Assembly (NCBI GenBank): GCA_044869275.1
Contig: JBIOXB010000211.1
Location: 1-64,000, forward strand
Source of the DNA: a bacterium
Lineage (GTDB): Bacteria > Zhuqueibacterota > Zhuqueibacteria > Zhuqueibacterales > Zhuqueibacteraceae
Reading direction: 5' to 3'
DNA: 64,000 bases
Made by a program: the position numbers and the translations under genes. Numbering within the stretch: the stretch's first letter is position 1; every line of letters starts with the position of its first letter. Positions 11,603-29,109 of the stretch are shown here, piece by piece. The notes beneath the pieces were generated by a model. The model searched no databases. It was not told where the DNA came from and saw nothing but the letters and a program-made list of their open reading frames with translations.

Positions 11603-12160
11603 TTATCGCAGCAGAGATTCCAGGTTTTCAATGACATCGCTGCGTTCGAGCCCCTTCAGCTCTGCAGCATGAGCACGCAAGTAGGTGAGCTGTAATTTTG
11701 GTTTGTTAAAAGCTATCAAAGCCCTCACATCGGCTACATCTTTGTCTCTTGCAGCGAAGAGCTTGAAAATGATTAGGTCCTCAATAGTGCAGACATTGAT
11801 TTCTACCTCGCCAAACATTCTACGCTGGCTGCGGGCGATGGCCTGCCGTTCCAGTCCACTCAAGCCCGCTGCCACGTCCACACGTATTTGCGTCGTTTGA
11901 TGGCGCAGCGGTAAAACGAAGAAGCGCTGAAAAAACGCCAGCGCGTTTTCCTTCACGGGTACAAAATCGTGCTCGAAAATTCTATAAATCCGGTCGAGTT
12001 GATCAATTTCGGCAAAGAGGGTGAGATCTATATCCTGGGTGGTACGCGCTCCGCCGTGAACGAGATTGGCGATACCTCCAATGACGGTATATGGAGTTTG
12101 ACTTTCAATACAAATGCGGTCAAGGTCAAGAAGCGTCTGCTCGAAGGGCGTCATGCTCAT
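11603..12160 (-). CDS. Nucleotidyltransferase-fold protein (toxin-like, DUF6036-type)
   Basis: VIGGIA..HG..RTTQDID and EDLIIFKLFAARDKDVAD motifs. Confidence 0.7.
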   Translation of the reverse strand: MSMTPFEQTLLDLDRICIESQTPYTVIGGIANLVHGGARTTQDIDLTLFAEIDQLDRIYRIFEHDFVPVKENALAFFQRFFVLPLRHQTTQIRVDVAAGLSGLERQAIARSQRRMFGEVEINVCTIEDLIIFKLFAARDKDVADVRALIAFNKPKLQLTYLRAHAAELKGLERSDVIENLESLLR

Positions 12161-12377
12161 GCTCGCGTAATTGGGAAAACAGCTCTTGCAGCATGACGTG
12201 GTGCTGAATGTCCGCCTCCACTTGCGCGGCGGTATTTGGCGAACGCAACCACGTGCGATAGGCAACTTCCAAAAAAGAAACAAAATCCTTCAAAGCGGGT
12301 TGCGGCTCGGGCGCAATCTCATTCAAAACCTCGTACTTGCGCCAAAACTGCGTTATGTATTTTTCCTGGTCCGTCAT
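12126..12377 (-). CDS. Small protein, probable antitoxin partner of the nucleotidyltransferase
   Basis: 83 aa, overlapping upstream gene in a two-gene unit; GAAGGA RBS. Confidence 0.55.
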   Translation of the reverse strand: MTDQEKYITQFWRKYEVLNEIAPEPQPALKDFVSFLEVAYRTWLRSPNTAAQVEADIQHHVMLQELFSQLREHEHDALRADAS

Positions 12378-12836
12378 GATTGTCCTTCGTGCCGTTTTGT
12401 TGAATTCTGTCTGCGATCAAATATAGTCAATTTGTCAATCGTGAACAACACGGATTTTGATGGAAATATACTGGGACATTTCATCCCTCTGGGGATTGAA
12501 TACATTCTTGGTCTGCTTTTGTGATTTCCCCGTTGTGAACCGTGCACCTCCCCGACCTTGACTTCCGCGCGTTCACTCTTCGTTTGAGCTGGTTCAAAAT
12601 TTCCATGCTCAAAACGCCGGGCGCTCTGCCCCAAGACAGAATAACAAGTTACACCGCGTAGCAGCCCTCCATGCAATATAAGTTAAAAGCTTTGCAATAT
12701 AGGTTAGAGATTTCGCCCTCCCTTTTTTCTAAATTAACGCACAATTCACGCTCTCATCCTGCACAAGTGAAGCCGAAAGTGCATCTCAAGTTTTTTATGT
12801 ACAACTCCGGCTTTGTCAATCAAAGGAGGGTCAGCC

Positions 12837-14553
12837 ATGAAATCGAAACTGTATCCATGGGCGTTTTCGAACCTGAGTCGAATGTGCCGTTTCTGCCGGC
12901 TGCGCGACGTGGCCATCACTTCTCTGTTGTTGGTGCTATTTATTGCACTACTTCCGACCTCGGCGTGGCCACAAACGCTATGGATCAAACACAACAATAA
13001 TCCCGTTTTGGATGCCGGGCCGTCCAGCGCGTGGGATGGCGGACGGATTTTCTATCACTTCATCTTTTTTGATGGAGCACAATACCGCATGTGGTACACC
13101 GGATACAATCCCACTTTGAACGCGCGGCCGGCAATCGGTTATGCGGCCTGGACCTTCGGACAGTTGGGATGATTCCGGTGCGGTCGCAACCTCCGTCCAC
13201 TACGATGGCACAACCTACAAAATGTGGTACGAAGGCGTCACTGGCATCGGGCGTGCGATTTCTTCCGACGGTATTCAATGGACCAAAGACCCGGCCAATC
13301 CTATGTTTGATGGGGACGCGCTGCAAAATTGGGAAAGCCAGGGAGTCGGACATCCTCGCGTCCTCTTTGACGGCCAAAAGTACCGACTTTGGTATATCGG
13401 CGTAGACGAAAAGGTCGACATCCGCATTGGATATGCCAATACTCCGTTGACGCACGATATGATGGTGGCTTCATTTCCAGAGCATCTGCAGAGAGTGCCC
13501 AAGCTCGCGAATGTTGCACCGAAGGTAATGCTCATGAATGCCGGCTTGAATGACGAATCCAACCTCGCCGTCACTTGTCAGATTGATTCCGCCGGGGTGA
13601 TCGTTTATTCGGATAAACAGGGCCTCACGCTTTTGCAAAGCCTCGCAACACGCGAAGTCACCTTCAAAAACTGGTGTACCTTCGGCGAGAAAAGCTACCA
13701 ATTTTCTTTCTTCACCATGAGATTAACCAACGGCGAGAACATCTTTAATGATACATTGCGAACAACCGTCAGCGTATCCAATCTCCTGGATGACTTTGAA
13801 ACTGGCTTTGGCAAATGGACTTCTGCCACGGGCTGGGGCATCAACGGCCAACGTTTTCATTCCGGCAAGTTCAGCATGGATGACAGTCCAACGGGCAATT
13901 ACGGCAACAACGTGAATAGCGCGGTGAATTATAATTTCAGCTTCGATCTTTCAGGGCAAAGCGCGGCGCACTTGTCGTATTGGAGTTGGAATGTTCTTCA
14001 ACCCAATGACTTCGGTTATGTCGAAGTGAGCACGGACAGCGGCGCGACTTGGAATCAACTCGGCGCGCGGCATGAAGGCGTGCAGCGCAGCTTCACGCAA
14101 GAATACCGCTCGCTCACGCCTTATTGCGGGCCCGGCTTCACAGATGTAAGAATCCGCTTCCGTCTCGTGACTGACGCGAGCGGCGTTTTTCCGGGCTGGA
14201 ATTTGGATGATATCGAAATTCACGAAGGCGAGTCGCCCACTGCCGTTGCGGAACAAGAGCCTCAAGGCGTGCCCCAAACGTTTGCTTTGCTCGGCAACTA
14301 TCCCAACCCCTTCAATCCCGAAACCACAATTGAATATCAATTGCCGCGGCCGGGCCGAGTCGAAATCGCAGTTTACAATCTTGCCGGACAACTCGTTCGC
14401 ACGCTACTCCAAGCACCTCAACCCGCCGGAAGATTCAAATTAAGATGGGATGGCAAAGATGATCGCGGTGCGAATGTGGCCTCCGGCGTTTATCTGTATC
14501 AATTGCAAGCGGAAGGATTTTCTGCAACCAAAAAGATGGTTCTGATGCGGTGA
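12837..14553 (+). pseudogene. Secreted glycoside-hydrolase-like propeller / immune-inhibitor-like / FlgD-T9SS CTD protein, broken by internal deletion and frameshift near 13145
   Basis: ORF1 has RBS AAAGGAGG, signal peptide and NNPVL..G..WD..Y.MWY.G..IGYA; ORF2 continues the same repeat in another frame and ends NYPNPFNP...WDGKD. Confidence 0.7.
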
Positions 14554-14603
14554 AGGCGCGGAGGGCCTGGCATTTGTTACTTTGATTTTTGAGAGTCACC
14601 GGG

Positions 14604-14641
14604 AGCGAAGTCGAAAGGTATTGTCTTGGTTCGACTTCGCT
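14604..14641. repeat. REP-like inverted repeat between convergent genes
   Basis: AGCGAAGTCGAA ... TTCGACTTCGCT perfect 12-bp arms. Confidence 0.6.
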
Positions 14642-14671
14642 TCCTGCTGATGACGGGGTTTGAATTCGTGC

Positions 14672-17600
14672 TCAATGCGACTCATACCCCTTCAACCCGC
14701 CGCGCGGCGCGATGAGCTTGAAATTCTGCAGCGACAATTCCACCTCCAGCTCATCGACCTCGATGAATTCTTTTCCATCTTTTATCATCACCGGCACATT
14801 TGAGAGCTGCAAAATTTCTTTGAATTTCGCCAAGGACTTTGCCCAATCGTGTTGATTCATTTCTTTGAGAATGCCGTGGGCGTATTGAAACGACTCGAGA
14901 CGGTTCTTGGGATCAAAGAAAAAGAAATTGCCGCGCGAGGCCCCGCCGAGCAGCTTGGTGCCAAGATACGGCCGGTCGTTGGTGCGCAACTTGCCGGCCG
15001 CATCGAAATGAACACCCGCGAAGTAAAAATTTCCGCCCATCAAAGATTCACCGGCGAATTTGCTGGCAGAGCCCAGAATCATCACCTCCAATTTCTGGCC
15101 GCGCGCATCGTCCACGGAATTCGTCCACGCGCGATCGACGACGTTGCCCATGATGAAAACTTTCCCGCCCTTGGAGGCATAACCGCAGACCTTGCCGGCA
15201 TTGCCGAAAACGTAAAGCTCGCCGTGGTGCATGCACATGCCGCAGAAATTTTGCGCATTGCCGTGCAGCCGAATCCCGCCGCCCTGCATGAACGCGCCGA
15301 AATACTCGCCCGCCGCGCCATAGACCTCCATTTCAACGTCATCCGTGTCGCGTGTGCCCATCACGGCGGTCGAGATCAAACGCTGGCCGCTGACGCGATA
15401 GAGCAGATAGCGCCGCCAGCCCAGCTCGTGGGCCCGGCGCAGAAATGCTGCCAAACAAAATTCGGGATCCGTGCCTTCCGGCAGGAAGCCGGCAGCATCA
15501 ATCACCAGACATTCTTTGGCAAAAGCGGGTTTGTTTTTGAACTGCTGCGCCTTTTTGCGATTGACGTGGAGGTGCCCCTCGATCAATCCTGCGGCCGTGC
15601 CGTCCAGCAAACGATTCAATTCATGGCGGGTAATATCTAACAATGAGCTCTTTGCCTTGTCGCCGGTATCGAGCGTGCGCATGTAGTCGTTCAGCCAGGT
15701 CAAGAGGTCCAGAACTCTTGTGAACGTCGTTTGAGTTTCCTTTACACCATCCACACCATGCGCGAGCACCCAACGATAGGTATTGAAATCCCACGTGGCG
15801 AGTTGGCGTGCAAACTCCGCGGGCGTGCTGTTGAGCAGCCGGCTCAAATTTAATTGCGCTTTGATCGCCGGCGGCGGCTCGTGCAGCGTTGCGCGGCTGC
15901 AACTGTAATGCCGGCCGAAATCTTCCGGCACGATGGGCTGGCCGTAGCGATCGATAAACTCGAAAGATCGAATGCGTTGTTGCTCGTCGAATTGGTAGCG
16001 GCTGATCATCCCGCTGCTCACCCAGGTGAGATCCGGCATCGCCCCATCGATCAAACCCTCACGATCCAGCAATTGCAGCATGCGCTGAATCGCCTGCTCT
16101 TCGGATGAAATGATACTAAAGGCGCGCGCGCCGCCATTTCCTTGGTCGATCCAGAACGCGCTCACGTTGGGGCGCAAGTCCGCGGGGTCTTTCAAATCCA
16201 CGCGCTCAGTGACTTTCGTGTAGGGGTTGTGGCGCAAACACAGATATTGATACGGGCCGTCAGGCGAGCTGGCGAACTCCACGCGCTGCACTTCCTCGAG
16301 CTGCGGCCGCAGCGCCGGAGCGACGAGATGCAGATCATCGCCGGTGGTCGGGGAAAAGCTTTCGAACAGAGCCCAATCCGGATATTGCCATTCGTCGGCG
16401 GTCAGATGAAATTTGAGCGCGGCCACCGCGGTATCGGTCGTTGCCAGAGGCGACAGTCCAAAAAACTCCACGCGTTGTTTGAGCGCTTCATAGTTTGTGG
16501 TTTCGCCGTTGTGCGTCAGGGCCGTGTGCAGATTTGAAAACGGGTGGCTGTTCATCTGTTCGACCACGGAGCCGGTGGCGAGGCGCACATGAATGATGTT
16601 GTTCGGTGCGGCCGGCGTTTGCCACGGTATTTCGCGGCCCGCGGTTTTCCAGGTTGCGAAATTTTTGCCGCACGACATGACGGCAGCAAGTCGCACCCGG
16701 CGGTTTTCATAACGATGCTCATATTGCGCGAACGGATGAGCCTGAATAAAATCACGCATGAGCTGCAAATACGGCTCGGGGTTCTCTTGCGCATTTTCCA
16801 TGATCGTTTTCACGTGCAGCGAGGAATGCCCTTGGCTCGCAAAACCGTTTTGCTGCGCGAATCTCTTCAAATGCTCCGGCGCGGCTTCAGAAACGTACAG
16901 CAAGCGCGTGAGCTCGAGCGAATGCTGGAAGACGAACAAATCCTCGGCCTTCTGCATGAAATGCGGCGACTGTTGATAGTTCTGCCGGGTGATCTTTGGA
17001 AACATGCCGGAGAGAAAACCCGTGCGCATGCGCCGTTGTCTCGCCGCCGCGCTGTTTGTGGCTGCGTCGCCTTCCGCCAGCAGCACGGTCTCGATATGAT
17101 GTTGCAACACTTCCGGTTTCACGCGGACGAAGAACGTGTAGAGATCGCCGGGATCAGTGCCGTCATGGCCGAACTCGCGGTAGTCGCGCTCGTTGCCATG
17201 GGCGTCGCCTTTGTAGCGCTCGCGCACCCGCGCCGCTTCGGTCTCAGTCTTGAAATCAAAGCAGGGCTCGAGAAAAACGCGGCGAATGCTGTTCATCAGT
17301 TTGGCGCGGCGATGCAAAACCAGCTCGCGCGCCGCAGCCCGCAACTCCTGGGTTGGTGCGTCGCGATGCTCCGCGCGCCATTGCAGCGCGAGATTCTCCT
17401 CCATCTCTTTTTGCAAAACGCCTTTCACCAGCACGCGATAGGCATAATCCTCCTGATGATCTGGAAAACACAGGGCCTTCGCCACGCCCACGCCGTCCAT
17501 GCCGCGATTTTTCATGCACGCCAGCGTTTCATCGAGAATGTAGCTTGGAATCGGCGCCGTGCCATTCACCGCGGCCACGCCACAATTGCTTTGCCCTGCC

Positions 17601-20600
17601 CGGGCGGGAAGAATTTCAGCAGGCTTGCGCTCATACGTTTCGTCGCGCTCGGCTTCTTTGATGACTTCTTTCTGCAGGCGCTCGCGGTGATCCACGCGCT
17701 CCTTCAATCCGATCCAGTGCAGCTTGTCATGGCGGCCGCGCAGCTCGCGAATATCCTTGCAGCCCAGCGCCGCCAGCGCGCGCATCACTTGCATCTGCAG
17801 AATGGTGAAGGTGTTGACGATCTGCAGCGCGTTCAATTCGACGTCACGCAGCTTTTGCATGATCAAATTGCTCGTCGCAATACCGCGCGAGCAGCCGTCC
17901 TGGCAATTGCGATTGCGGTCGCAGCCGATCGCCACCAGCGGCGCCGTGCCCCAAATGACACCATCCGCGCCCAGGGCCACGGCCTTGATCACGTCTTCAT
18001 ACGTGCGAATGCCGCCGCTGACGAAGAAACTCACGTGGTTGCGCAAGCCGTCGCGCACGAGCCGGTGGTGAATCAGCGGCACAGCGTATTCAATGTGCAT
18101 CCCCATCTGGCCCTTGATAATGTTGGGTGAAGCACCGGTGCCGCCGCGCGGGCCGTCGAGCCAGATTTCGATTTTCATGCCGTACTGCCTGGCATAAGCC
18201 GCGACCTCTGCCGCCATCTCGCCATAGCCCTCCTGTACTTTGCCAAACTTGGTGGCGACGATTTCATCCGTGTTGTCTTTGCCGATGCGTCCCAGGCCCG
18301 CGGCGATGAACTCAATGTCGATCGAGGGCGAAACTTTGATCGACACTACGGCATGGGGATTGATCATGCGCACGATATCGATGAACGCTTTCACGTCTTC
18401 AATCGAATAACAATTGTGGAACGGAAACGGCGAGATGATGCTGGTGTAGACAAAATTGATCACGTTCTGGGTTTCACGCAGCAAATTCTCGAACTCCAGC
18501 TCGTCGAGCTTGCTCTCCGCGTGCAGGTTGTAAATCCGTTCGCGCAGCTCGCGCAGATGGCGTTTTAATTCCTCCGTCACGTGCTTTTCGTCGCGCGCGC
18601 GATCGGCTTCTGCCAGCGCAGGCGGGGCGATTGTGTACAGGGGATGGTTCTCGTCACCGGCGATGCGCGCCAAGCGTTTCACCAAAGCCTCCAAACCCTC
18701 AAGATGCAATTCTTCCAAGCCTTCTATGCCGCGCAGGTAGGAGACGAGCTTGTTCACTTTCTTCGCGAGAATGTGGCCGCCGATGCCCATCTTCGCGCCC
18801 TGGCTGTAGGCGATCACCAGCCGTCGCGCTTTTTGCATGGTTTCCTTGGTCACACCGAACAAGCCGGTCTTCAATTCGGTTGAGATGTAAGCTTCGTCGT
18901 CGGTATCAATCACCGTCATAAAATGAAACGGCGCGAGCGAAGGATGCAAATCGAGTTGTGCGAAAACGTGTGCATGGGTGTGGGGGGTGCAGCCGTTCTG
19001 CGTCAGTATCTGCCGCACTTCTGCAATGGTGTAATTCCGCCCGTTTTCGAAGAAGGGCTTGATCGTTTGTATTTCATTCTCTGTAAAGAATATCGGCTCG
19101 CCTTTCGTGTTCAAAAAGAACGAAGTGGGATAGCCGCCTTCACCGGTGTCGCATTGCGTGCCCAGCGCGCGGCAGGCAATCACCTGCGCGCGCCACGTAT
19201 CCAATCCGATCGATCCGACGGATTTGCCGCCGAACATCCATGGTCCCGCCAGGATCAAGTCCTTGTCCAGGCGCAGCGCGGTGTTGATATGCTCCAATTC
19301 GCCCTCCGGAATGTCCATCGGGTCTTTGTTGTAAAGAATGCGCATCACGTCAAAGCCGTCGCCCAAGGCCCCCGTGGCTTTCACGTGGCGCAAATCGAGC
19401 ATGGCAAGATCGCCGGTGGCCATGCGGCCGATGGATTCGATCAGGTTGCCCGGCCACACAAAATCGCGCTTTAAGAGATTTTGATTGGTCTCCTCCAGGC
19501 GGTAAAAATCATGCGGCTGCGGCAGCGGCCGGATCATCCCGCGCAGCTGTGCATAGTGGCGCTGCGCCTCCTCCGCAATGGGTTCGCGCGTGATCAATTC
19601 CTCGTTCAACTGCGCGTACCGCACGAGGATGTCTTCGTCTTCGAAAATATCGCGCTGCAGGCGATGCTCGAGCTGATGAAAATCGATGAGACGCCCCTCC
19701 TCGCCCACGGTTTTTTTGATGTCCTTGAATCCGGCGGCGCCGAGCACTTCGAGGATTTGCACCTTGCGCGATTCGGCTTGATGGTTGAGGCGTTGCACCG
19801 CCCAATCGACCTCCATGCTCAACAGCTTTTCCGTGGTCGTGCGATTTTCCACATACGCGCGATAGGCCGTCGGGTCGAGCGCCAGCAGCGCGGCAAAATC
19901 GATGAGCGTGGCTTCGGCGCCGCGCTGAATCGTCTTCTGTGAATCCGAAGCCAGGCGAATGCCGCCGGAGGCGATGATGGAAACCTCATGCCGCATGCCG
20001 ATGCGCAAGAGATAATGATGCAACGCCTGCACCGCGTTCGAAGTGACGAAGTACTCGTCTTTGTTGCGCAAGCCGTGCACGTGTAAAATATCAACGCCCA
20101 GATCGAGAAACTCATTCACCTTCTGCTTGATCGCGGGCGCAAGCATGCTCATGCCGAGGAGATCGTACTCCGAGATTTCCAGATACCCGCTGATCAGCGG
20201 CTGCTGTCCGCCTTCATGGCGCGCGCTGTCACGAATAAAAGGCAGAGTACGGCCGATATTGGCGTCGTGCTTGAGCTCGAACGCCGGCATGCTCCAAAAA
20301 TCCAGCAAGAATTCGCGATTGGTGTTGGGATTCACGGTCAGGCGGTGCATGAGCTCATGATCCACGCGCGGCATGATCACACGCGGCAGGCGTTGATAAT
20401 GGCCCTCGCGCAGAAAATATTCGTAATAATCCAAAATTGTGCGCGTGTACATCACCACCAGCGCGCCCTGCCTCTCCGCCACCTTCATCATGGCCAGCTC
20501 GATCTTGCCGTTGCATAATTGCTCGATGACGTTGTACAGGATCGGCGTGCGCAACTTGAGCAGCCGCGAGGTGTGAGGGCCATGGCCGCTCACGATCCGG

Positions 20601-23512
20601 CCGTTGCCGTCGAACTTGCAGAAGTCCTCGCGCTTGCCGAGGATCACGGCGAGCTCCTCGTCCGGGTCGCCTTCGTGCAGGCGATTCTGTGCCGGGCCGA
20701 CGATGTGAAAATGCGAGAAGCGCTCGGCGTCGAAACCGATGCCCATGTGCCGGTCGCCCTGGCCCATGCCCGACACCGGAATTTGCCCGGTGGAAGCCTC
20801 TTTGTCGATCTCCATGATGATTTGTTCGGTGACGTAAAGATCGGACACTTCCGTGACCGGCGTGGAGCGCTGCACCACAGTGGTATCGTGAATGCGCTGC
20901 TGGCGGTTGATCCAATATTTCTTTTCCTCGAGATCGACCGCGTGCGCGACCGCGCGATCGAGCGCTGTACGCTCCAGTTGCGCGGCTTTGTTTTGCGGGC
21001 AGAAATTCACGCAGGCATTGCACAGCGCGCAATTCACATGCAGCAGCTCGGGAATCTCGCGTGCATGGCCAATGCGGGCGCCGTAGGTGCAGGCATTTTC
21101 GTGGCTGCACATGCCACAGCGGATACAGGTTTCGGGATCGATAAAAAGCTTGCCGTATTCATAGCCGCGCGGATAAATCACCTTCAACCCGTGCTGCAAA
21201 TGCGATTTTTCTTCTTTTTGTTGCGCGAGCGTGTGCGGCAAATACTGCGGACTCTCCTTCATGATTTGCCAGAAGCGGTCGATGAACTCGGTCTTCTGCG
21301 GTTTGTTGAGACCCAGCGCGCGAATGAAATTTTGATCCGCTTCGACCATGTCGTAAAGCCGGGTGAGCGGAATGTCAGTCGGGCACACGCGCGTGCAGTT
21401 GTCACAGCGCGTGCACACCAGGAAGCCCAGCGCTTCTGCTTGCGAGATTGCTTCGCCGGCGGCAATGCGGTTCGCGGTTTTGCGCCGCGTGATGGGCGTC
21501 GCCGCACCGAGCAGGCCGAACACGTCCGAGGTCGGGCACACGCGCTCGCAACTGTCGCATTCCGCGCACACCGCCGTGATTTCCGCCAGCGGGTGGCGTT
21601 CCGCTTTCAATGTGGAAGGGACCACTTTCGGGAAAAGCAGCGTGCCGATTTTCCAAATGGCGCCACTCAGCGGATTTTTGAGGTAGCGCTGCGGATCTTC
21701 CGCATTTTTATCGAACAATCTCACCAGGATTTCCTGCGCGCGCACCATGGCGTTAAAAGCAAAACGCGGAAGCAGGCGTTGCTTGCTGGCATTCAGAAAT
21801 TTGCCGCGATTGAGCAGCCTGCGCTCGTCGCTCCGGGCCTTCAGCGCTGCCAGCTTCTCATATTTTTGCGGGAAGGATTTTTTGAAGGCGCGCAGGAACG
21901 GCAGATTCCAGATGCCGATGCCGTACGGTTTCGCGCCGAAGTGCAGCGCCATTTGCGTCATATACGGCACCAGGGCGAAGTACAATTTGTGGCGGAAAGT
22001 CTTGGTGTCGGCCAGCAAAATGGATTGGATCAACATCTCTTCCGGGTTGATCACGTGGCCTTCGGTCTTGATTTCGAGATCGAGCAGCTCGCGCAAGGTA
22101 CGGCGCAGCAGCTGCATGTATTGTGGAAACGCCGCAAGCGGAATCACGGTCTCGCTCACCAGCATCGAAGGGCCTTTTTGCTTCATCTGCACCGGCTTGT
22201 AGCGATGCTCCCAAAACCTGTGCGCGAGCGCGGTGGGCAATTGGCGATAACTCAGTTGCCCGTGGCGCAAAGACGCGCCGCTGGCGCCGAACAACCGCGA
22301 GCGCACAGCCAACTCGTAATCTTCCGCGGTGTCGAAATTGAGCACGAGCACGTGATCCGGCTCACCCAGGGGGTGCAAGGCCTGCAAATCTTCGCGCGCC
22401 TCCTGCAGCCGTTTTTCATCGTCATGGGCGAGCGCGCGATGCGAAGCTTCTGCGAGATGCTCGCGTTCGATTTCGACCGTGAGTTTGATGAATTCACGAT
22501 CGAAATAAATGATCGAAGAGGGCCGCAGGCTTGCCTGGCCAACCAATTGGATAAACTCTCGCGCCGCCTCGCGCGTGGGCAATACCAGTGCAAACGGCTT
22601 GCTCGCGGTTTCGTATTCCTTCACCTGAACGCGCGCGCCCACGACCATGCCGAGCTGGCCTTCGCTGCCAAAAAACAGATCGAATTCTTCTTCGTCTTTG
22701 TGCAAAGCCTTGAGCTCGCCGCGCGGTGTGATCACCAGCAGCGCCTCGACGGAATTCTTCACCGCACCGTATTTGTACGCCCCTATGCCAAGGCCGCCGG
22801 TGACGATCCAGCCGCACAACGTGCCGCTGTTAGGATTGGTGATGTCCTGCCGCAAAGCCAGGCCGTGATCCTTCAACGTCTTGCGCAATGTGGGAAACAA
22901 TGCGCCCGCGCCCACCGTGATCATGTGCGCGGCGGCATCGACCTGCACAAAGTCGAGATAGGAAAGATCGAGAATCTTGGCGCCTTCGAGCGGGATGCAG
23001 CCGCCGAACGGCCACGTGCCGGCGCCGCGGATGGTGTAATGCACTTTGTGCTGATACGCCCACTCCACGAACTGGCGTGCGTCGGCAACGCTCACCGGCC
23101 GCACGATGAAAGAAAACTTGATATCGACCAAAAGCTTCTTAAACAACCGCGGCACCATGGCGGTGCCGGTGTCGTTGCCGTAAATCTCTTTTTGTACTTC
23201 ATCGGGCACGAAGATTTCGGTTTCCTTGGAAAGCCGCTGGCGCAGCTCGGTTACCGCGGCCTCGTTGAGCGCCGGTGCAGCGGCGCCGTTTGGCAGCGCG
23301 CTGAATCCACGAAAGAGCAATTGCCGCGCACGACGCTGCTCGGCCACGCGCTCAGCACTCGAGCTCTGCAAAAGAAAATCAAATGGCGAGCCGGAGGAAG
23401 CAGCCGGTTGATCTCCATTGGCGCCAGTTTGCTGCCATGCACGGCGGCGCAACAAGCTTGTGGATGAACCGGCACGGTCGGCGTAGTCCAGGTGGGGAGC
23501 AGTCGAGGCCAT
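14672..23512 (-). CDS. 2946-aa multidomain glutamate-synthase-like protein: FAD-linked oxidase, two ferredoxin modules, degenerate FMN barrel, FMN barrel, GATase-II, GXGXG
   Basis: RGAGT/GSEGQLG/LNRGK; four CxxCxxC motifs; TGEGG, SQGAKMG, DGPRGGTGA, SGGIRT, CDRNRNCQDGC; SNCGV..RG..HVRLATG..HNGE; C-terminal G.AG..G repeats. Confidence 0.88.
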   Translation of the reverse strand: MASTAPHLDYADRAGSSTSLLRRRAWQQTGANGDQPAASSGSPFDFLLQSSSAERVAEQRRARQLLFRGFSALPNGAAAPALNEAAVTELRQRLSKETEIFVPDEVQKEIYGNDTGTAMVPRLFKKLLVDIKFSFIVRPVSVADARQFVEWAYQHKVHYTIRGAGTWPFGGCIPLEGAKILDLSYLDFVQVDAAAHMITVGAGALFPTLRKTLKDHGLALRQDITNPNSGTLCGWIVTGGLGIGAYKYGAVKNSVEALLVITPRGELKALHKDEEEFDLFFGSEGQLGMVVGARVQVKEYETASKPFALVLPTREAAREFIQLVGQASLRPSSIIYFDREFIKLTVEIEREHLAEASHRALAHDDEKRLQEAREDLQALHPLGEPDHVLVLNFDTAEDYELAVRSRLFGASGASLRHGQLSYRQLPTALAHRFWEHRYKPVQMKQKGPSMLVSETVIPLAAFPQYMQLLRRTLRELLDLEIKTEGHVINPEEMLIQSILLADTKTFRHKLYFALVPYMTQMALHFGAKPYGIGIWNLPFLRAFKKSFPQKYEKLAALKARSDERRLLNRGKFLNASKQRLLPRFAFNAMVRAQEILVRLFDKNAEDPQRYLKNPLSGAIWKIGTLLFPKVVPSTLKAERHPLAEITAVCAECDSCERVCPTSDVFGLLGAATPITRRKTANRIAAGEAISQAEALGFLVCTRCDNCTRVCPTDIPLTRLYDMVEADQNFIRALGLNKPQKTEFIDRFWQIMKESPQYLPHTLAQQKEEKSHLQHGLKVIYPRGYEYGKLFIDPETCIRCGMCSHENACTYGARIGHAREIPELLHVNCALCNACVNFCPQNKAAQLERTALDRAVAHAVDLEEKKYWINRQQRIHDTTVVQRSTPVTEVSDLYVTEQIIMEIDKEASTGQIPVSGMGQGDRHMGIGFDAERFSHFHIVGPAQNRLHEGDPDEELAVILGKREDFCKFDGNGRIVSGHGPHTSRLLKLRTPILYNVIEQLCNGKIELAMMKVAERQGALVVMYTRTILDYYEYFLREGHYQRLPRVIMPRVDHELMHRLTVNPNTNREFLLDFWSMPAFELKHDANIGRTLPFIRDSARHEGGQQPLISGYLEISEYDLLGMSMLAPAIKQKVNEFLDLGVDILHVHGLRNKDEYFVTSNAVQALHHYLLRIGMRHEVSIIASGGIRLASDSQKTIQRGAEATLIDFAALLALDPTAYRAYVENRTTTEKLLSMEVDWAVQRLNHQAESRKVQILEVLGAAGFKDIKKTVGEEGRLIDFHQLEHRLQRDIFEDEDILVRYAQLNEELITREPIAEEAQRHYAQLRGMIRPLPQPHDFYRLEETNQNLLKRDFVWPGNLIESIGRMATGDLAMLDLRHVKATGALGDGFDVMRILYNKDPMDIPEGELEHINTALRLDKDLILAGPWMFGGKSVGSIGLDTWRAQVIACRALGTQCDTGEGGYPTSFFLNTKGEPIFFTENEIQTIKPFFENGRNYTIAEVRQILTQNGCTPHTHAHVFAQLDLHPSLAPFHFMTVIDTDDEAYISTELKTGLFGVTKETMQKARRLVIAYSQGAKMGIGGHILAKKVNKLVSYLRGIEGLEELHLEGLEALVKRLARIAGDENHPLYTIAPPALAEADRARDEKHVTEELKRHLRELRERIYNLHAESKLDELEFENLLRETQNVINFVYTSIISPFPFHNCYSIEDVKAFIDIVRMINPHAVVSIKVSPSIDIEFIAAGLGRIGKDNTDEIVATKFGKVQEGYGEMAAEVAAYARQYGMKIEIWLDGPRGGTGASPNIIKGQMGMHIEYAVPLIHHRLVRDGLRNHVSFFVSGGIRTYEDVIKAVALGADGVIWGTAPLVAIGCDRNRNCQDGCSRGIATSNLIMQKLRDVELNALQIVNTFTILQMQVMRALAALGCKDIRELRGRHDKLHWIGLKERVDHRERLQKEVIKEAERDETYERKPAEILPARAGQSNCGVAAVNGTAPIPSYILDETLACMKNRGMDGVGVAKALCFPDHQEDYAYRVLVKGVLQKEMEENLALQWRAEHRDAPTQELRAAARELVLHRRAKLMNSIRRVFLEPCFDFKTETEAARVRERYKGDAHGNERDYREFGHDGTDPGDLYTFFVRVKPEVLQHHIETVLLAEGDAATNSAAARQRRMRTGFLSGMFPKITRQNYQQSPHFMQKAEDLFVFQHSLELTRLLYVSEAAPEHLKRFAQQNGFASQGHSSLHVKTIMENAQENPEPYLQLMRDFIQAHPFAQYEHRYENRRVRLAAVMSCGKNFATWKTAGREIPWQTPAAPNNIIHVRLATGSVVEQMNSHPFSNLHTALTHNGETTNYEALKQRVEFFGLSPLATTDTAVAALKFHLTADEWQYPDWALFESFSPTTGDDLHLVAPALRPQLEEVQRVEFASSPDGPYQYLCLRHNPYTKVTERVDLKDPADLRPNVSAFWIDQGNGGARAFSIISSEEQAIQRMLQLLDREGLIDGAMPDLTWVSSGMISRYQFDEQQRIRSFEFIDRYGQPIVPEDFGRHYSCSRATLHEPPPAIKAQLNLSRLLNSTPAEFARQLATWDFNTYRWVLAHGVDGVKETQTTFTRVLDLLTWLNDYMRTLDTGDKAKSSLLDITRHELNRLLDGTAAGLIEGHLHVNRKKAQQFKNKPAFAKECLVIDAAGFLPEGTDPEFCLAAFLRRAHELGWRRYLLYRVSGQRLISTAVMGTRDTDDVEMEVYGAAGEYFGAFMQGGGIRLHGNAQNFCGMCMHHGELYVFGNAGKVCGYASKGGKVFIMGNVVDRAWTNSVDDARGQKLEVMILGSASKFAGESLMGGNFYFAGVHFDAAGKLRTNDRPYLGTKLLGGASRGNFFFFDPKNRLESFQYAHGILKEMNQHDWAKSLAKFKEILQLSNVPVMIKDGKEFIEVDELEVELSLQNFKLIAPRGGLKGYESH

Positions 23513-23552
23513 GAGGTGTTCTCCTGAGGTGAAATGATTGGCGCAAATGCAA

Positions 23553-23618
23553 AATGCCCCGTCCGTTCCTGGTGCATGATCTCATGAGCTACCGGCGCAG
23601 AGGAACGAGAGGGGCATT
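23553..23618 (-). promoter_or_regulatory. Long leader hairpin upstream of the giant glutamate-synthase-like gene
   Basis: Nested complementary arms AATGCCCC/GGGGCATT and CGTTCCT/AGGAACG. Confidence 0.5.
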
Positions 23619-24138
23619 GGCCCGAAAAGAATAAGTTTTATTCGCGCTGCATAATTTTTCAGAAGTGCGTGGATAACATTCAAGCGTTATCGTGTGGCAG
23701 GAGAATAGTGAAATTTATTTTGCCGCGCAAAGAGATTTTTTGAGCAGCGCCTTGTTATTGTGCTGAAGGGATCATTTTAAACTAAAGGGAACTGCGGGAG
23801 AATTCGTTGGTTGTGGCGCTGCGCGGGAAGAATAGGCTGGGATAATGAGTGTTAGATTTGCAATGATGTAAGTCTAGCAAGAGGGTGATTGATTCCTTAG
23901 ATCTTGACACCACGCTCTTCCACCATTCGTAACAACATGTCTCTAAAATGGACAAACCCAGGGAATCTTACTGGCAAATATAAACATCTCACCCCTTGTG
24001 AGCAAGGCTGATTTCGGCAATGCGCGCTTGACTTTTTCCATACTGCGCTTAAATTGATTTCGACACAATGGCCCGTATTCCAGCCGACGCTCCATCCCGA
24101 ATTCAATCCACACGGGTTTTGATAAAATTGACTCGGTC

Positions 24139-26448
24139 ATGATTGGCAGAGCCATATCACATTATCGCGTCTTGGAAAAGCTTGGCCAGGGCGGCATGGG
24201 CGTGGTTTATAAAGCTCAAGACCTCAAGCTCGACCGCTTTGTCGTGCTCAAATTCCTTCCACCCGATCTCACCCGCGATGAGCAAGCCAAAGCGCGCTTC
24301 ATCAACGAAGCGCGCTCGGCCTCGGCGCTCGACCATCCCAACATTTGCACGGTTTATGAAATCAACGAAAGCGACGACGGGCAGTTGTTTATTGCCATGG
24401 CGTACTATGAAGGCGAAACGCTGAAGGAGAAAGTGGGCAGTGATCAGTTATCAGTAAACAGTGTGATTGAGATTGCCACGCAAATTGCGAACGGCTTGAC
24501 TCGGGCACATGAGGTAGGCATCGTGCATCGCGATATCAAACCGGCGAACATCATGGTCACCAAACGCGGCGAAGTGAAGATTCTCGATTTCGGTTTGGCC
24601 AAGCTGGCGGGACAACAGCATCTCACCAAAACCGGCGCGACCATGGGCACAATTGCGTACATGTCGCCCGAACAGACGCAAGGTTTGCCAGTGGATCATC
24701 GCACCGATATTTGGGCGCTGGGCGTGGTGATGTATGAGATGATTACCGGACAACTGCCGTTTCAGGGGCATTACGATCAAGCGGTGATGTATGCGATTGT
24801 GAATGTCGAGCAGAAACCGGTTTGGCAACTTCGGCCCGAAACGCCAATGGGGTTGGTAGAGGTTGTTGCAAAGAATTTGAATAAGAATCCGGGAGAACGG
24901 TATCAACATGTTGAGGAATTGCTTCAAGATTTGAAAACAGGCGGCCGCGGAGTTGCGAGCAAAGTTTCGAGCAAGCCCACGCTACCTCGAAAAAATTCAT
25001 TACAGAAACGATGGCCTGTTTATGCGTTATTGGCAGGCCTATTTGCTGCGTTCACATTTGCCGGGATTCACTTTCTTCCGAAATCAACGCAAGCCATCGA
25101 TTCCATTGCCGTGTTGCCGCTGCAAAATCTCTCCGGCGATCCGGAGCAAGATTACTTTGCCGACGGCATGACCGAAGCGTTGATAGCGAACCTGGCCAAG
25201 ATCAAATCCCTGCGCGTGATGTCGCGGACCTCGGTGATGCAATTCAAAAACACGCGCGAGCCTTTGCCGGAGATTGCCAAAAAATTGCGCGTCGATGCTA
25301 TCGTGGAAGGTTCGGTGGCGCGGGCGGGTAATCGCGTGCGGATTACCGCGCAGTTGATCGAGGCGGCAACCGATCGGCATCTGTGGGTGGAGAATTATGA
25401 TCGTGACCTCCGCGACGTTCTTGTGTTGCAGAGCGAAGTAACGGAAGCGATTATGAGTGAGATGCGAGTGCAGTTGACGCCACAAGAAGAACAGCGTCTG
25501 ATGGTGGTGCGGCCAGTTGATCCCGAGGCGTATCAGCTTTATTTGAAAGGCCGGGACTTTATGAGTAATTTCAATTGGGATAAAGGCTTGCAATGCTTTC
25601 AAAAAGCGATAAGTATTGACCCGAATTTTGCTCCGGCTTATTCTGGTGTTGCAGGAGTATATTTGCAATTCATGACCGGAGGCACGTGCTACGGGTTGCC
25701 GAAAGAAATGTTTCCCAGAACCAAAGCTGCCGCATTGAAAGCCTTGGCACTAGATGATACAGATGCCGAAGCTCACGCGGCACTCGGCGCGATGAAATTC
25801 TATTACGAATGGAATTGGAATGAACCGGAGCGCGATTTTAAACGTGCTCTTGAATTGGCGCCGCAGAGCGCCGGCATTTATCAAAGTTTTGCTACGTATT
25901 TAGTGTTGGTAGGTCGATTCGACGAAGGCATTGCGTTACACAAGAAAGCCATTGAGCTCGATCCTCTCTCTCCATCCTTAAGTATCACTTTAGCTTTTGG
26001 TTTTTTTTATGCGCGCCGTTATGACGAGGCAATTGCGTACCTTCACACGATGCTGCAGTTATATCCTGAACATCCCATTGCATACTATCAGCTTGTATGG
26101 CCTTACATCTTGAAGAAAATGTACAAGGAGGCTCTCGCGTTTCATGATAAACTGCCGGAACCTTTTGTGAAGGCATATGTTTATGCTGTCGCTGGTCAGC
26201 GCGAGGAAGCTTTACAAATACTTGATGAGCAATTGAAGCGCTATCAAGCTGAGCAATGCGAGCCCTTCAATTTTTCGTATGTCTATCTCGCTTTAGGCGA
26301 TATCGACCAAACCTTTTATTGGTTGAACCAAGCTTACGAATATCGTTCTGGCTATATCGTTTGGCTGAAGACCGAGCCAATGTTCGACCCTATACGCACC
26401 GATCCAAGGTATGTAGAATTGTGCAGGAAGATTGGGTTGAAAAATTGA
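24139..26448 (+). CDS. Hanks-type Ser/Thr kinase with TM helix, TolB-N-like domain and TPRs
   Basis: LGQGGMGVVY, HRDIKPAN, DFGLA, YMSPEQ; SIAVLPLQNLSGDPEQDYFADG; TPR helices. Confidence 0.92.
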   Translation: MIGRAISHYRVLEKLGQGGMGVVYKAQDLKLDRFVVLKFLPPDLTRDEQAKARFINEARSASALDHPNICTVYEINESDDGQLFIAMAYYEGETLKEKVGSDQLSVNSVIEIATQIANGLTRAHEVGIVHRDIKPANIMVTKRGEVKILDFGLAKLAGQQHLTKTGATMGTIAYMSPEQTQGLPVDHRTDIWALGVVMYEMITGQLPFQGHYDQAVMYAIVNVEQKPVWQLRPETPMGLVEVVAKNLNKNPGERYQHVEELLQDLKTGGRGVASKVSSKPTLPRKNSLQKRWPVYALLAGLFAAFTFAGIHFLPKSTQAIDSIAVLPLQNLSGDPEQDYFADGMTEALIANLAKIKSLRVMSRTSVMQFKNTREPLPEIAKKLRVDAIVEGSVARAGNRVRITAQLIEAATDRHLWVENYDRDLRDVLVLQSEVTEAIMSEMRVQLTPQEEQRLMVVRPVDPEAYQLYLKGRDFMSNFNWDKGLQCFQKAISIDPNFAPAYSGVAGVYLQFMTGGTCYGLPKEMFPRTKAAALKALALDDTDAEAHAALGAMKFYYEWNWNEPERDFKRALELAPQSAGIYQSFATYLVLVGRFDEGIALHKKAIELDPLSPSLSITLAFGFFYARRYDEAIAYLHTMLQLYPEHPIAYYQLVWPYILKKMYKEALAFHDKLPEPFVKAYVYAVAGQREEALQILDEQLKRYQAEQCEPFNFSYVYLALGDIDQTFYWLNQAYEYRSGYIVWLKTEPMFDPIRTDPRYVELCRKIGLKN

Positions 26449-26694
26449 TTAGAAGTTTGCTACAAAATTTCTTGACTAGTGGTCCAACATTCCAGGATTT
26501 CCAAGTTTTAGAAAAGACAAAGCTGATGCTTCCAATTTTTAATATGCCTAAACTCTGCAAAATATCTCTCCTCTTGACTTCCAAGTTTTGGTAAGCTTTC
26601 CTGCCATTTAGCCATTCTTGCTTGATAATCGCCCGCTCAGGTTAACACAATCAAATTCAACCTGTTGAGACATCTGGCATATACCCGCAACTAT

Positions 26695-26710
26695 TGGCAT
26701 TATTCTTGGC
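26695..26710 (+). promoter_or_regulatory. Imperfect sigma-54 (-24/-12) promoter candidate
   Basis: TGGCAT-N5-TTGGC versus consensus TGGCAC-N5-TTGC; about 60 nt before the ATG at 26771. Confidence 0.3.
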
Positions 26711-26770
26711 TATGCCCTCACTAAATCAATTCTGTACTGATTTACCAGCTAATTTTGTAAGGAGAGTATC

Positions 26771-28108
26771 ATGATCAAGCTTAGACAATTTTGCATACTG
26801 CTGGTAATGGCTATTTTAATAGTTGGCAGTGTAGGAACGGCCCAATGGATTCCCCAACCTTCACCTTTGCCAGTAGGCGTACCAGCGCATTTCTTTTATC
26901 CTGTGAATGAAAATATTATCTGGGGAATTGGAATTACCGAGGCGGGACCGTCTCAAGGCGTCATTCGAACTGTCGATGGAGGCAAAAACTGGCAACTCAC
27001 GACCATCACTGCCGCAACAAACTTATGGTTCGACGATGTCTTTGCCAGCGATAGCAGCATTGCATGGGTTTCCGCATTTGATTTCAATCTAAGCTTAGTG
27101 GGAGGCATCTTCAAGACAATTGATGGTGGCAAGACCTGGGTAAGGCAACCCAACCTTTTTGACAGATCAGGAACGGCGCCATTGTGTGTTTATTTTTTCG
27201 ACGTAAAAGATGGCCTTGCCATTGGCGATTCACCTATTGACGGCTATTTTGAAATTTATACGACAACTGATGGCGGCGATAATTGGACACGAGTGCTCAA
27301 GGACAGTATTCCTCCTTTAGCAGTTGGCGGCGAATTTAGTGTCAACAATAGTTATGCTGCGCAAGGGAACTCCTTTTGGTTTGGCACTTTTCCCGGTCGT
27401 GTATATCGCACGACCAATCGTGGAAAGAGTTGGGCGGTATCAGACCCGGGACTTGGTCCAACCACGGTAGTGTTTCTCGCTTTTCGGGATGAGCTCAATG
27501 GTTTGGCGACCAGATATTTCCCGGATCGCAATCGTTTCGCCAAAACCGCCGATGGAGGAAAAACATGGACCATCAGCAATTCACTCCGCGGGATAACCGG
27601 GCCAGTTAAATTTGTTCCAGGCACAACGGCAACTTATATCATCGGTTCTAGAGGTTATTTTGGAGAACCGCCGGGCTCCACTTATACTTTGGATGGCGGC
27701 ATCACTTGGAAGATGATTGATAATCTCTCACATACCGTCCCCGCATTTTTTTCTCCACAAATCGGTTGGATCGGCGGTGACGACTTTATCTATAAATGGT
27801 CCGGCCCAGCCTTGCCCGTCAATGAAACATTGAGCGAGTTGCCAGTTCATTTTGCGTTGAGCCAAAACTACCCCAACCCCTTCAATCCCTCCACCACTAT
27901 TCGTTATTCATTGGAGCAAACCGAACGTGTTTCGTTGAAAGTCTTCAATCTCGCCGGGCAAGAGGTCGCCACGCTGATTGAGGGCAAACAGAATGCGGGC
28001 GAACATCATGTGCAATGGCAAGCGGAGGGCGCGCCGAGCGGGGTTTATTTCTATCGACTGCAGGCAGATAAGAAAGTGGAAACGCGGAAGATGATTTTGA
28101 TGCAGTGA
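26771..28108 (+). CDS. Secreted BNR/Asp-box (YCF48-like) beta-propeller protein with T9SS-type CTD
   Basis: Repeated T.DGG..W motifs; QNYPNPFNPSTTIRY...SGVYFYRL; signal peptide; AAGGAG RBS. Confidence 0.85.
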   Translation: MIKLRQFCILLVMAILIVGSVGTAQWIPQPSPLPVGVPAHFFYPVNENIIWGIGITEAGPSQGVIRTVDGGKNWQLTTITAATNLWFDDVFASDSSIAWVSAFDFNLSLVGGIFKTIDGGKTWVRQPNLFDRSGTAPLCVYFFDVKDGLAIGDSPIDGYFEIYTTTDGGDNWTRVLKDSIPPLAVGGEFSVNNSYAAQGNSFWFGTFPGRVYRTTNRGKSWAVSDPGLGPTTVVFLAFRDELNGLATRYFPDRNRFAKTADGGKTWTISNSLRGITGPVKFVPGTTATYIIGSRGYFGEPPGSTYTLDGGITWKMIDNLSHTVPAFFSPQIGWIGGDDFIYKWSGPALPVNETLSELPVHFALSQNYPNPFNPSTTIRYSLEQTERVSLKVFNLAGQEVATLIEGKQNAGEHHVQWQAEGAPSGVYFYRLQADKKVETRKMILMQ

Positions 28109-28165
28109 CGGCGCATGGCGCGGAGGGCATGGCGCCTAGCGGTCAGTTTTAGCGCTGTAATTCTC

Positions 28166-28204
28166 AAAAGCGGATCAGGAAGAGGTTGTTCTGATCCGCT
28201 TTTC
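28166..28204 (+). terminator. Intrinsic terminator
   Basis: AAAAGCGGATCAG ... CTGATCCGCTTTT stem with T tract. Confidence 0.7.
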
Positions 28205-28312
28205 TCCTTATGAGGCGCCAGCTTGAAAAAGCTCTTTCTTTTGAAGGTAGTTTTAGGTAGTTTTCATCAGAGAAATGGAATGGGAAAGAGTAACCTTTAA
28301 GGAGTCGATAAC

Positions 28313-28648
28313 ATGGAGACGGTCCAAATTCAACTGCCGTCCAAACTGGCGGAGCGCATACGCCGGGAGATGCCTACCGATGAAGCGTTGAGCAAATTCG
28401 TCGCCGAGGCGATCCAGCTCCGGTTAGAAAAACAGCAGGAAGAGAAAACGGACAGAGAAAAAGCGTTGCACGCACTTCGTCAAGCCGGCTTCGTCATGTC
28501 GGCTGAAAGGCAGCGTTCCATGGCCGAAGACCTGCTGGCGAAATTATCGTTGCCAAAGACTACGAACCGTGCCGAGGTGGAAACTGCCTTGGCTAAACTC
28601 AAAGTCCCCCTTTCAGATGAAATCATCTCGATGAGAGGCGATCGCTGA
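28313..28648 (+). CDS. Putative antitoxin (RHH-like N-terminus)
   Basis: Directly precedes the PIN gene with TGATG overlap; AAGGAG RBS. Confidence 0.7.
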   Translation: METVQIQLPSKLAERIRREMPTDEALSKFVAEAIQLRLEKQQEEKTDREKALHALRQAGFVMSAERQRSMAEDLLAKLSLPKTTNRAEVETALAKLKVPLSDEIISMRGDR

Positions 28649-29109
28649 TGTTCTATTATTTTGACAGCAGCGCAGCCGTTAAACGATATGCACCAGAAAA
28701 GGGAAGTGATTGGGTGAAAACTGTCATTGCGCGATCGGCAGGCAACACCGTTTACCTTGGCCAAATCGGCGTAGTAGAAATCGCTGCAGCCTTGAGTAAG
28801 AAAGTGCGTTCGAAAGAGCTGGCCAACGAGGAATACGAGGCATCCTTTGGGCTATTTCTCGCGGACGTGGAAAATTATGAGTACTTTACCGCCCCACTGC
28901 ATGACGAAGTGATCTGGCGCGCCGTGGACTTGACCAAGCGGCATCCTCTACGAGGATACGATGCCGTGCATCTGGCTACCGCTATTACTCTCAATACTCT
29001 CCAGCTTGAAGCAAATCTCCCTTCGCTTACCTTCGTCTCTGGCGACAAACTCTTATGCGATGCGGCCCAAAAGGAAGGATTCACGGTCTATAATCCCAAT
29101 GAGCATTGA
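28648..29109 (+). CDS. vapC: VapC-family PIN toxin
   Basis: YYFDSSAAVKRY..E.GS and LRGYDAVHLA..FVSGD. Confidence 0.88.
   Translation: MFYYFDSSAAVKRYAPEKGSDWVKTVIARSAGNTVYLGQIGVVEIAAALSKKVRSKELANEEYEASFGLFLADVENYEYFTAPLHDEVIWRAVDLTKRHPLRGYDAVHLATAITLNTLQLEANLPSLTFVSGDKLLCDAAQKEGFTVYNPNEH

Follow-up and report, generated by a model that had tools for sequence, protein, structure and literature searches.

A giant bacterial open reading frame predicted to encode a self-cleaving glutamate synthase fused to a flavoprotein electron-input module

The 64,000-nucleotide stretch of DNA analysed here ("the window"; positions 1 to 64,000 of contig JBIOXB010000211.1, GenBank assembly GCA_044869275.1) comes from a bacterium of the family Zhuqueibacteraceae and contains, at 14672-23512 on the minus strand, an uninterrupted open reading frame (ORF) of 2,946 amino acids (aa) that starts with ATG and that we refer to as the giant. 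The explanation that we favour overall, by a modest degree of belief, is that the giant is a self-cleaving glutamate synthase, derived from a fused operon and equipped with its own electron-input module. As one polyprotein of fused archaeal-type subunits, it would catalyse the overall reaction Gln + 2-oxoglutarate + 2 electrons -> 2 Glu. The protein works like a glutamate synthase and is not a canonical GltB, and its flavoprotein part lies outside the metal-dependent 2-hydroxy acid dehydrogenases.

A giant ORF with the modules of a glutamate synthase

Pfam matches along the giant follow the order FAD_binding_4 (residues 135-268, E 1e-24), FAD-oxidase_C (309-571; E 0.006, below the cut-off), Fer4 (648-714 and 790-842), Glu_synthase in three stretches (E 3e-61), GATase_6 (2304-2365) and GXGXG (2722-2874). 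Together with the ORF call, this bears out the 2946-aa ORF and the domain order described in a first-pass annotation of this DNA, and the four cysteine clusters listed there are present as well, starting at residues 649, 700, 796 and 828. The features, all on the minus strand, are the following (FAD, flavin adenine dinucleotide; FMN, flavin mononucleotide; Ntn, N-terminal nucleophile):

14672-23512, minus: whole ORF, predicted fused glutamate synthase polyprotein (P0001), 2,946 aa (ORF call, Pfam, homologs, read contigs)
23521-23525, minus: Shine-Dalgarno-like purine run, 8 nucleotides 5' of the ATG of the ORF (sequence)
21773-23245, minus: VAO/PCMH FAD oxidoreductase module, approximately residues 90-580 (Pfam, structure search, alignments)
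21353-21580, minus: ferredoxin 1, predicted 2x[4Fe-4S]; Cys 649, 652, 655, 659, 700, 703, 706 and 710 (Pfam, alignment)
20978-21151, minus: ferredoxin 2, predicted 2x[4Fe-4S]; Cys 796-838 (Pfam, alignments)
19673-20845, minus: barrel 1, degenerate full-length GltB2 duplicate (alignments, structure search)
17708-19387, minus: barrel 2, predicted FMN synthase domain; [3Fe-4S] Cys 1864, 1870 and 1874 (alignments, structure search)
17585-17707, minus: linker, residues 1936-1976, poorly conserved and of low confidence; predicted cleavage directly before Cys1977 (conservation, model)
15938-17584, minus: class II (Ntn) glutamine amidotransferase with insertions (Pfam, alignments, structure search)
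17582-17584, minus: codon of Cys1977, an internal residue of the chain and the nucleophile of the class II amidotransferase (alignment, structure search)
14858-15520, minus: GXGXG beta-helix, GltB3-like (Pfam, NCBIfam)

An assembly join or read-through, which the first-pass annotation had wanted checked, is ruled out by 71 full-length homolog clusters and by the contigs of three read runs. Run X1, perhaps the source of this DNA, gave a single contig across the whole stretch with 0 differences, and the contigs of runs X2 and X3 had depth in 30/30 bins, with no joint listed. GC content around the ORF is 0.55-0.59, similar to most of the window. The giant is solitary, with unrelated neighbours on the opposite strand. 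Two terminator-like sites lie on the plus strand within 14300-14900; no promoter-like site was found in the same interval, a scan that covered the 3' end of the ORF only, and Rfam gave no match in window positions 12000-30000.

Searching other genomes for the same architecture, also suggested earlier, returned three subfamilies of full-length relatives. Among the best 120 of 216 matches of 1,620-5,156 aa, subfamily A comprises 71 clusters (2,786-2,992 aa, 95-100% coverage, 52-85% identity) whose named members are mostly Calditrichota or KSB1, and subfamily B comprises 35 clusters of approximately 2,530 aa, named Syntrophaceae or Thermodesulfobacteriota. A third, distant subfamily of 3,000-3,300 aa has an unchanged domain order; its members (L129:7082-16963, L130:6496-16182, P0204 and P0232) occur in other genera of the host's own family. 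The conservation counts given below rest on group consensus and on alignments of 33-44 rows rather than on all 107 long homologs. With barrel 1 as query, the giant gene was found in 17 of 151 genomes of the host phylum, the host included, and we therefore call its distribution patchy. In one further genome (G095), a break following ferredoxin 1 splits the giant gene, and between the two parts lies a gene of 461 aa whose product resembles, by eye, an AlbA/Schlafen-type DNA-binding protein (L083:4372-5757). No description of an identical, already characterised architecture was found in the full-text literature searched, which largely lies outside subscription journals, and the same holds for the mvhD-linked split form presented below.

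The synthase barrel and its gene context

Barrel 2 carries the positions expected of a working synthase domain. Residues E1458, Q1571, K1574, R1594, E1705, K1726 and T1792 align to E903, Q969, K972, R992, E1013, K1034 and T1065 of Synechocystis GltS, which we take to be the 2-oxoglutarate- and FMN-binding residues of that enzyme, and all seven are invariant in 38/38 rows together with the three cluster cysteines. The predicted model superimposes on Azospirillum brasilense GltS (6s6s) with Z 28.1 and a root-mean-square deviation (rmsd) of 3.3 over 352 aligned residues; members of subfamily A have a helical insertion near residues 1600-1690.

The genomic context of subfamily B was surveyed in 39 loci, which come from related genomes, so that the counts are not independent. 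Of the 30 loci with enough sequence upstream of the giant, 25 have a glnA gene within 1.5 kb on that side, and in 25 of 32 loci carA follows no more than 3.5 kb downstream; amtB, P-II and glnD genes are nearby in 5, 7 and 4 of the 39, respectively. When 10 picked subfamily-B genomes (completeness not given) were searched for another PF01645 match at E <= 1e-10, none was found in 7, a weak one in 2 and a strong one in 1. Likewise, 9 of 16 giant-positive genomes of the host phylum have giant-type PF01645 matches only (E <= 1e-25). Judged from its sequence, the giant very probably has glutamate synthase activity.

An internal glutaminase nucleophile

The glutaminase residues are equally well preserved: C1977, R2003, R2310, T2313, N2335, G2336 and D2360 are invariant in 38/38 rows, with R73, T76, N98, G99 and D123 of GlmS as matched positions, and an equivalent of Cys1977 is present in 37/37 locus proteins. 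The closest structural matches of the amidotransferase model are 8w7d (Z 15.3, rmsd 3.0, 216 aligned) and 1xff (Z 13.4), and both PurF and GlmS align from model residue 613, which is Cys1977. In sequence the domain is closer to GlmS than to GltB, and its probability against a GltB glutaminase profile of 4 sequences is 1.9%.

Class II amidotransferases need their nucleophilic cysteine at a free N-terminus. Since Cys1977 is internal, activity would require cleavage into chains of approximately 1,976 and 970 aa; in the literature, the glutaminase site is marked as Cys1 (PMC8097209). The approximately 40 residues before Cys1977 are variable, and the predicted local distance difference test score (pLDDT) is below 50 at model residues 586-613. 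This linker (1936-1976) corresponds to the leader of stand-alone amidotransferase genes. In 12/12 such genes examined, the cysteine is preceded by a leader, which is 28-41 aa long in 11 of them and 94 aa long in the twelfth, and no methionine stands beside it. In the Protein Data Bank, A. brasilense GltB appears at 1,515 and 1,479 aa, with a numbering offset of 36 residues. The leaders of the split relatives and the GltB offset suggest that leader removal is already part of the life of the enzyme, so that fusion to upstream modules would merely make the leader longer. Provided that the giant is a synthase, we consider it very likely that it would be cut before Cys1977. The first-pass annotation had overlooked this internal nucleophile and its need for release.

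The first step would thus be a cut by the Ntn domain before Cys1977, yielding two chains that would remain associated: an N-chain of approximately 1,976 aa with the FAD module, both ferredoxins and both barrels, and a 970-aa C-chain with the glutaminase and the beta-helix. Cys1977 would then, by homology, hydrolyse glutamine, and the ammonia would pass to barrel 2 and add to 2-oxoglutarate, the resulting imine being reduced by FMN. In a 3,152-aa relative (P0244), the modules are circularly permuted, with the amidotransferase and beta-helix preceding FAD, barrel 1 and barrel 2, which shows that the N- and C-halves are exchangeable units.

Probable origin by fusion of a split operon

A natural protein consisting of FAD, ferredoxin, ferredoxin and barrel 1 (P0199) was used as query and led to 35 metagenome loci, of which the 22 longer than 4 kb were annotated; the loci were picked by sequence patterns and form a non-random sample. 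Most of the annotated loci have three genes, encoding a ferredoxin plus degenerate GltB2 (gene 1, approximately 460 aa), a ferredoxin plus catalytic GltB2 (gene 2, approximately 505 aa, sometimes fused to gene 1) and an amidotransferase plus beta-helix (gene 3, approximately 870 aa). An mvhD/FlpD gene lies within 1.5 kb upstream of the split synthase in 18 of the 28 loci with room, and the FAD plus ferredoxin module of the giant sits where this mvhD-like gene usually stands. Some split loci are neighboured by metF, metV, hdr genes, glnA or gdh; L093 has hdrABC, and L109 an hdrA-like gene. As an aside, the three-gene split form (L088-L118 and L131, metagenome) may itself be an Hdr/Mvh-fed glutamate synthase.

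A tree of 34 rows, for which the tool warned of long branches, groups the catalytic barrels of 13 giants and 11 split loci in a single clade (99/99) that excludes canonical GltB, Thermotoga-type GltB2 and three further stand-alone barrels. The giants make up one side of a branch supported at 91/85. Because the catalytic barrels share a clade and the module orders match, we interpret the giant as a fused split operon. A simple circular permutation of canonical GltB is ruled out, as both barrels are of the GltB2 type and group with the split operons. The earlier label "permuted GltB" captured a real domain order; the protein is better described as the fusion of a split operon with duplicated GltB2.

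Two ferredoxins and a degenerate barrel

All eight cysteines of ferredoxin 1 are invariant in 44 rows, and this ferredoxin accompanies the FAD module in stand-alone relatives. Ferredoxin 2 is the N-terminal ferredoxin of an archaeal-type GltB2 copy. The stand-alone ferredoxin-GltB2 protein of one locus (L018:4573-6084) aligns colinearly to giant residues 792-1270 (22%, E 2e-14) and also, in pieces, over barrel 2 (best E 4e-34); subfamily B gave this double alignment (residues 790-1270 of the giant, with the second copy at 1376-1935) as well. Since the same protein aligns twice, we read ferredoxin 2 and barrel 1 as a degenerate GltB2 duplicate and barrel 2 as the working copy.

Barrel 1 retains a flavin-phosphate motif whose last residue is R1186, is without the substrate loop and without the three cysteines of the [3Fe-4S] cluster, and occupies the position of the central domain in GltB, a domain proposed to stem from duplication of the FMN barrel (PMC8097209). 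Against profiles built from only four canonical sequences, barrel 1 scored 87.6% (E 3.5e-6) with the central domain versus 42.6% with the FMN domain, and the split gene-1 proteins scored 85.6% versus 98.6%; the GltB central domain itself scored 38.2% with the FMN domain profile. In a residue comparison that used only the deleted loop and the cysteine columns, the three cluster cysteines are kept in 7 of 8 split gene-1 proteins and missing in 3/3 giant copies. The profile scores hint that barrel 1 may be an intermediate in the central-domain duplication; the structural search instead matched it to the FMN domain of 6s6s (Z 16.2, rmsd 4.4, 249 aligned). The case for an intermediate is that the split relatives keep the cluster cysteines, that the giant has lost them and that the giant copy is nearer to the central domain than to the FMN domain. 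In the working enzyme, barrel 1 would be a non-catalytic scaffold, analogous to the central domain of GltB.

The FAD module as predicted electron input

The model of the FAD module has a D-lactate dehydrogenase fold (8jdb, Z 30.1, rmsd 2.9, 425 aligned; 7qh2, Z 29.4) and an invariant site formed by W434, R437, K444, E454, H486, D502, Y530, W535 and N536. According to the consulted part of a study on D-2-hydroxyglutarate dehydrogenase (D-2-HGDH), Arg386, His434, His441, Glu475 and His476 are essential and strictly conserved in D-lactate dehydrogenase (D-LDH) and GlcD, and exchanging any one of His441, Glu475 and His476 leaves the human enzyme inactive (PMC7801405). Of this five-residue set the FAD module keeps only the arginine that binds the C1 carboxylate (R437) and the first histidine (H486); the second metal histidine is replaced by Q496, the metal glutamate by P529 and the catalytic histidine by Y530, which is invariant in the family of the module. 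With two metal ligands and the catalytic histidine replaced, a classic metal-dependent D-2-hydroxy acid dehydrogenase is ruled out, and the 2-hydroxy acid oxidation by a GlcD/D-LDH mechanism that the first-pass annotation had proposed is not upheld. Its picture of a self-contained enzyme holds insofar as it describes a synthase that has an Fe-S chain and is fused to a flavoprotein, and fails for the 2-hydroxy acid donor as it was stated.

An alignment of 169 of 174 relatives of the module with 12 family rows (181 rows in all) places these replacements in context. The 27 classic control rows keep the full His/His/Glu and catalytic set, and 109 of the 181 rows, stand-alone 480-aa proteins among them, share the Pro-Tyr pair with largely conserved Arg, Lys, Glu, Asp and Trp positions. 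The module scored 54.9 bits against NCBIfam glcD (cut-off 567.9) and 27.4 against YdiJ (cut-off 1,350); for 6 relatives from the clade no curated family came above its cut-off, and their Atlas names are generic only. Members of the clade are found alone, with a ferredoxin, joined to CCG or to GcvH domains, or as part of the glutamate synthase; the FAD-ferredoxin module is also fused to a membrane subunit, and there are proteins that continue through the second ferredoxin into barrel 1. Individual relatives (P0281, P0276, P0222 and P0271) carry three GcvH domains plus CCG domains, a membrane subunit of NrfD-like appearance (by eye), or a tandem arrangement behind a decayed copy.

The FAD module reads best as a dehydrogenase, with a relay role as the main rival. 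The dehydrogenase reading derives from the conservation of a site in a module that is combined with a variety of acceptors, and on this sequence evidence the module is probably a substrate-oxidising electron donor. It would oxidise a small anionic molecule at an Arg/Lys/Glu/Asp/Tyr site that is free of metal and pass the electrons, via as many as four [4Fe-4S] clusters, to the [3Fe-4S] centre and the FMN of barrel 2. The fullest version of this proposal, in which a metal-free VAO/PCMH dehydrogenase would feed a self-processing synthase directly with electrons drawn from an organic substrate, NAD(P)H, ferredoxin and F420 playing no part, and barrel 1 would be a surviving central-domain intermediate, we put forward only tentatively.

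Alternatively, the giant could be a glutamate synthase in which the FAD module is a GlcE-like relay or docking unit, with electrons arriving from ferredoxin, electron-transferring flavoprotein, an Hdr/Mvh complex or a separate dehydrogenase subunit. Such a role would account for the missing catalytic histidine and metal ligands and has parallels in the protein-borne donors of the split relatives (mvhD, and the hdr genes of L093 and L109); the fusion of one relative to three GcvH domains suggests a protein-bound substrate. We nevertheless think it unlikely, as the cap retains its own invariant polar set in those 109 rows, stand-alone proteins included, the other FAD domain of tandem relatives looks decayed (by eye), and no stand-alone GlcD-type partner was found in the host genome by PF02913, where the sole other match is a 986-aa frame.

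More doubtful still is a donor such as lactate, glycolate or 2-hydroxyglutarate, which would call for a novel mechanism that needs no metal and in which Tyr530 or His486 acts as the base; for 2-hydroxyglutarate, this would sum to 2-hydroxyglutarate + Gln -> 2 Glu. The nearest solved folds are indeed D-lactate dehydrogenases, R437 and one histidine are retained, and glutamate formation driven by 2-hydroxyglutarate is thermodynamically favourable. Against this stand the glcD and YdiJ scores, far under their cut-offs, and the replacement of the equivalents of all three residues (His441, Glu475 and His476) named in the consulted part of the D-2-HGDH study (PMC7801405).

Observations that count against the proposal

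Returning to the proposed self-cleaving synthase with its own electron input, several observations weigh against it. Barrel 2 deviates from GltB in having A1568 for K966 and K1430 for M875 (K1430 in subfamily A), its last two cluster cysteines are spaced one residue closer, and the two predicted models reach predicted template-modelling scores of only 0.63 and 0.53. The FAD site lacks the known catalytic set, and substrate oxidation is assumed from conservation alone. As the cluster cysteines kept in 7/8 split gene-1 proteins are lost from barrel 1 of the giant, the electron chain may be broken or rerouted. In the gene context, glnA is not close upstream in 5 of the 30 subfamily-B loci, the 15 loci of subfamily A have no conserved nitrogen context or neighbours, and three subfamily-B loci (L016, L018 and L026) have, just upstream of the giant, an additional split synthase cluster of the Thermotoga type (GltB2, ferredoxin, NADH oxidoreductase and GltB3, with glnA genes alongside). 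Moreover, 7 of the 16 giant-positive relatives have another synthase-type gene (canonical-length GltB in 3, a stand-alone barrel in 4), and the host genome itself has a canonical gltB (G000:C68:1-4350), truncated near its 3' end by a contig edge.

No gltD match to TIGR01317 above cut-off was found in the genome assembly (94% complete); since a contig end cuts the canonical gltB, the gltD that goes with it may simply be missing from the assembly. The genome check that the first-pass annotation had called for was thus negative for gltD and corrected that annotation by turning up a canonical gltB; its statement that the window holds no gltD is consistent with a Pfam scan of 21 larger window ORFs. 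The host genome also contains one TIGR01316 (SudA/NfnB-type) gene and two glnA genes, both away from the giant.

A different amine reaction or the reverse one, in which glutamate or a methylamine-type amine would be oxidised at barrel 2 and the FAD module would reduce an acceptor, as in an N-methylglutamate-synthase-like enzyme, or the use of free ammonia by the uncleaved enzyme, is the most improbable of these alternatives: it would fit the barrel 2 deviations, the canonical gltB of the host, the metF genes beside some split loci and an amidotransferase nearer to GlmS than to GltB, but not the glnA-giant-carAB operon, the giant as sole synthase in many genomes or the full conservation of the glutamine site and E1705. 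N-methylglutamate synthase (MgsABC), which presumably has the same three domain types as the giant on split genes, is set apart from it by description and not by sequence, the context of the giant being ammonia assimilation rather than methylamine use. No methylamine genes were noticed among the annotated neighbours, for which no dedicated search was made.

Comparison with known systems

With the GltB/GltD enzyme of A. brasilense (1ea0, 6s6s) and GltS of Synechocystis (1llw), the giant shares the active-site positions of the FMN/[3Fe-4S] barrel and the beta-helix, as well as a class II amidotransferase with a leader before its cysteine and a degenerate barrel that immediately precedes the synthase barrel (PMC8097209). 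Unlike GltB, which runs amidotransferase-central-FMN-beta-helix in approximately 1,500 aa, the giant has its amidotransferase after the synthase barrel, with the cysteine at 1977, fuses two ferredoxin modules and a VAO/PCMH flavoprotein, and has no GltD-type subunit in the gene. Its NCBIfam GltB score is 125, against a cut-off of 1,047, and it falls in a separate clade from canonical GltB (PRK11750). From the split archaeal/Thermotoga-type GltB1/GltB2/GltB3 enzymes it differs in having GltB2 in two copies, one of them degenerate, all parts on a single chain, and a donor module that is not an NAD(P)H oxidoreductase. The FAD module shares with LctD (7qh2), mouse LDHD (8jdb), human D-2-HGDH (6lpn) and GlcD the fold (Z approximately 30), the FAD-binding half, the arginine and the first histidine; unlike these enzymes it has its own invariant set of Lys, Glu, Asp, Tyr, Trp and Asn.

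In the portions of the literature consulted, characterised glutamate synthases use NADPH, NADH or ferredoxin (PMC8097209, PMC3448663). The nearest conceptual precedent for an input other than pyridine nucleotides is the putative F420-dependent FGltS(I/II) of methanogens, a GltB2-type synthase with an FrhB-type subunit that was deduced from gene context (PMC3448663, in part) and is also treated in a preprint (bioRxiv 10.1101/2021.09.25.461819, in part); as far as these sources go, its input is separately encoded, with no fusion and no duplicated barrel, unlike in the giant.

In many genomes of uncultured Syntrophaceae/Desulfobacterota and KSB1/Calditrichota, the giant family is apparently the sole glutamate synthase found, so that the way these organisms pay for ammonia assimilation would depend on its donor. 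By linking a large FAD clade to a measurable output, glutamate, it makes the substrate of that clade screenable. The proposal also predicts that a class II amidotransferase cuts the 330-kDa chain of which it is an internal part, and it offers a test of the old suggestion that a duplicated FMN barrel gave rise to the central domain of GltB.

Other genes of the window

Three further genes of the window deserve mention. On the plus strand, 556-2442 encodes a 628-aa protein in which a radical SAM/CofH-MqnC domain is fused to a menaquinone-biosynthesis (PF02621) domain. A thiamine pyrophosphate-dependent enzyme at 31640-33367 (plus strand) is 81% identical to one located approximately 4 kb from the giant in a genome of the same genus, which is probably genus-level synteny. 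Finally, a Glu/Leu/Phe/Val dehydrogenase gene at 44833-46131 (minus strand), 21 kb from the giant, adjoins an alanine racemase gene.

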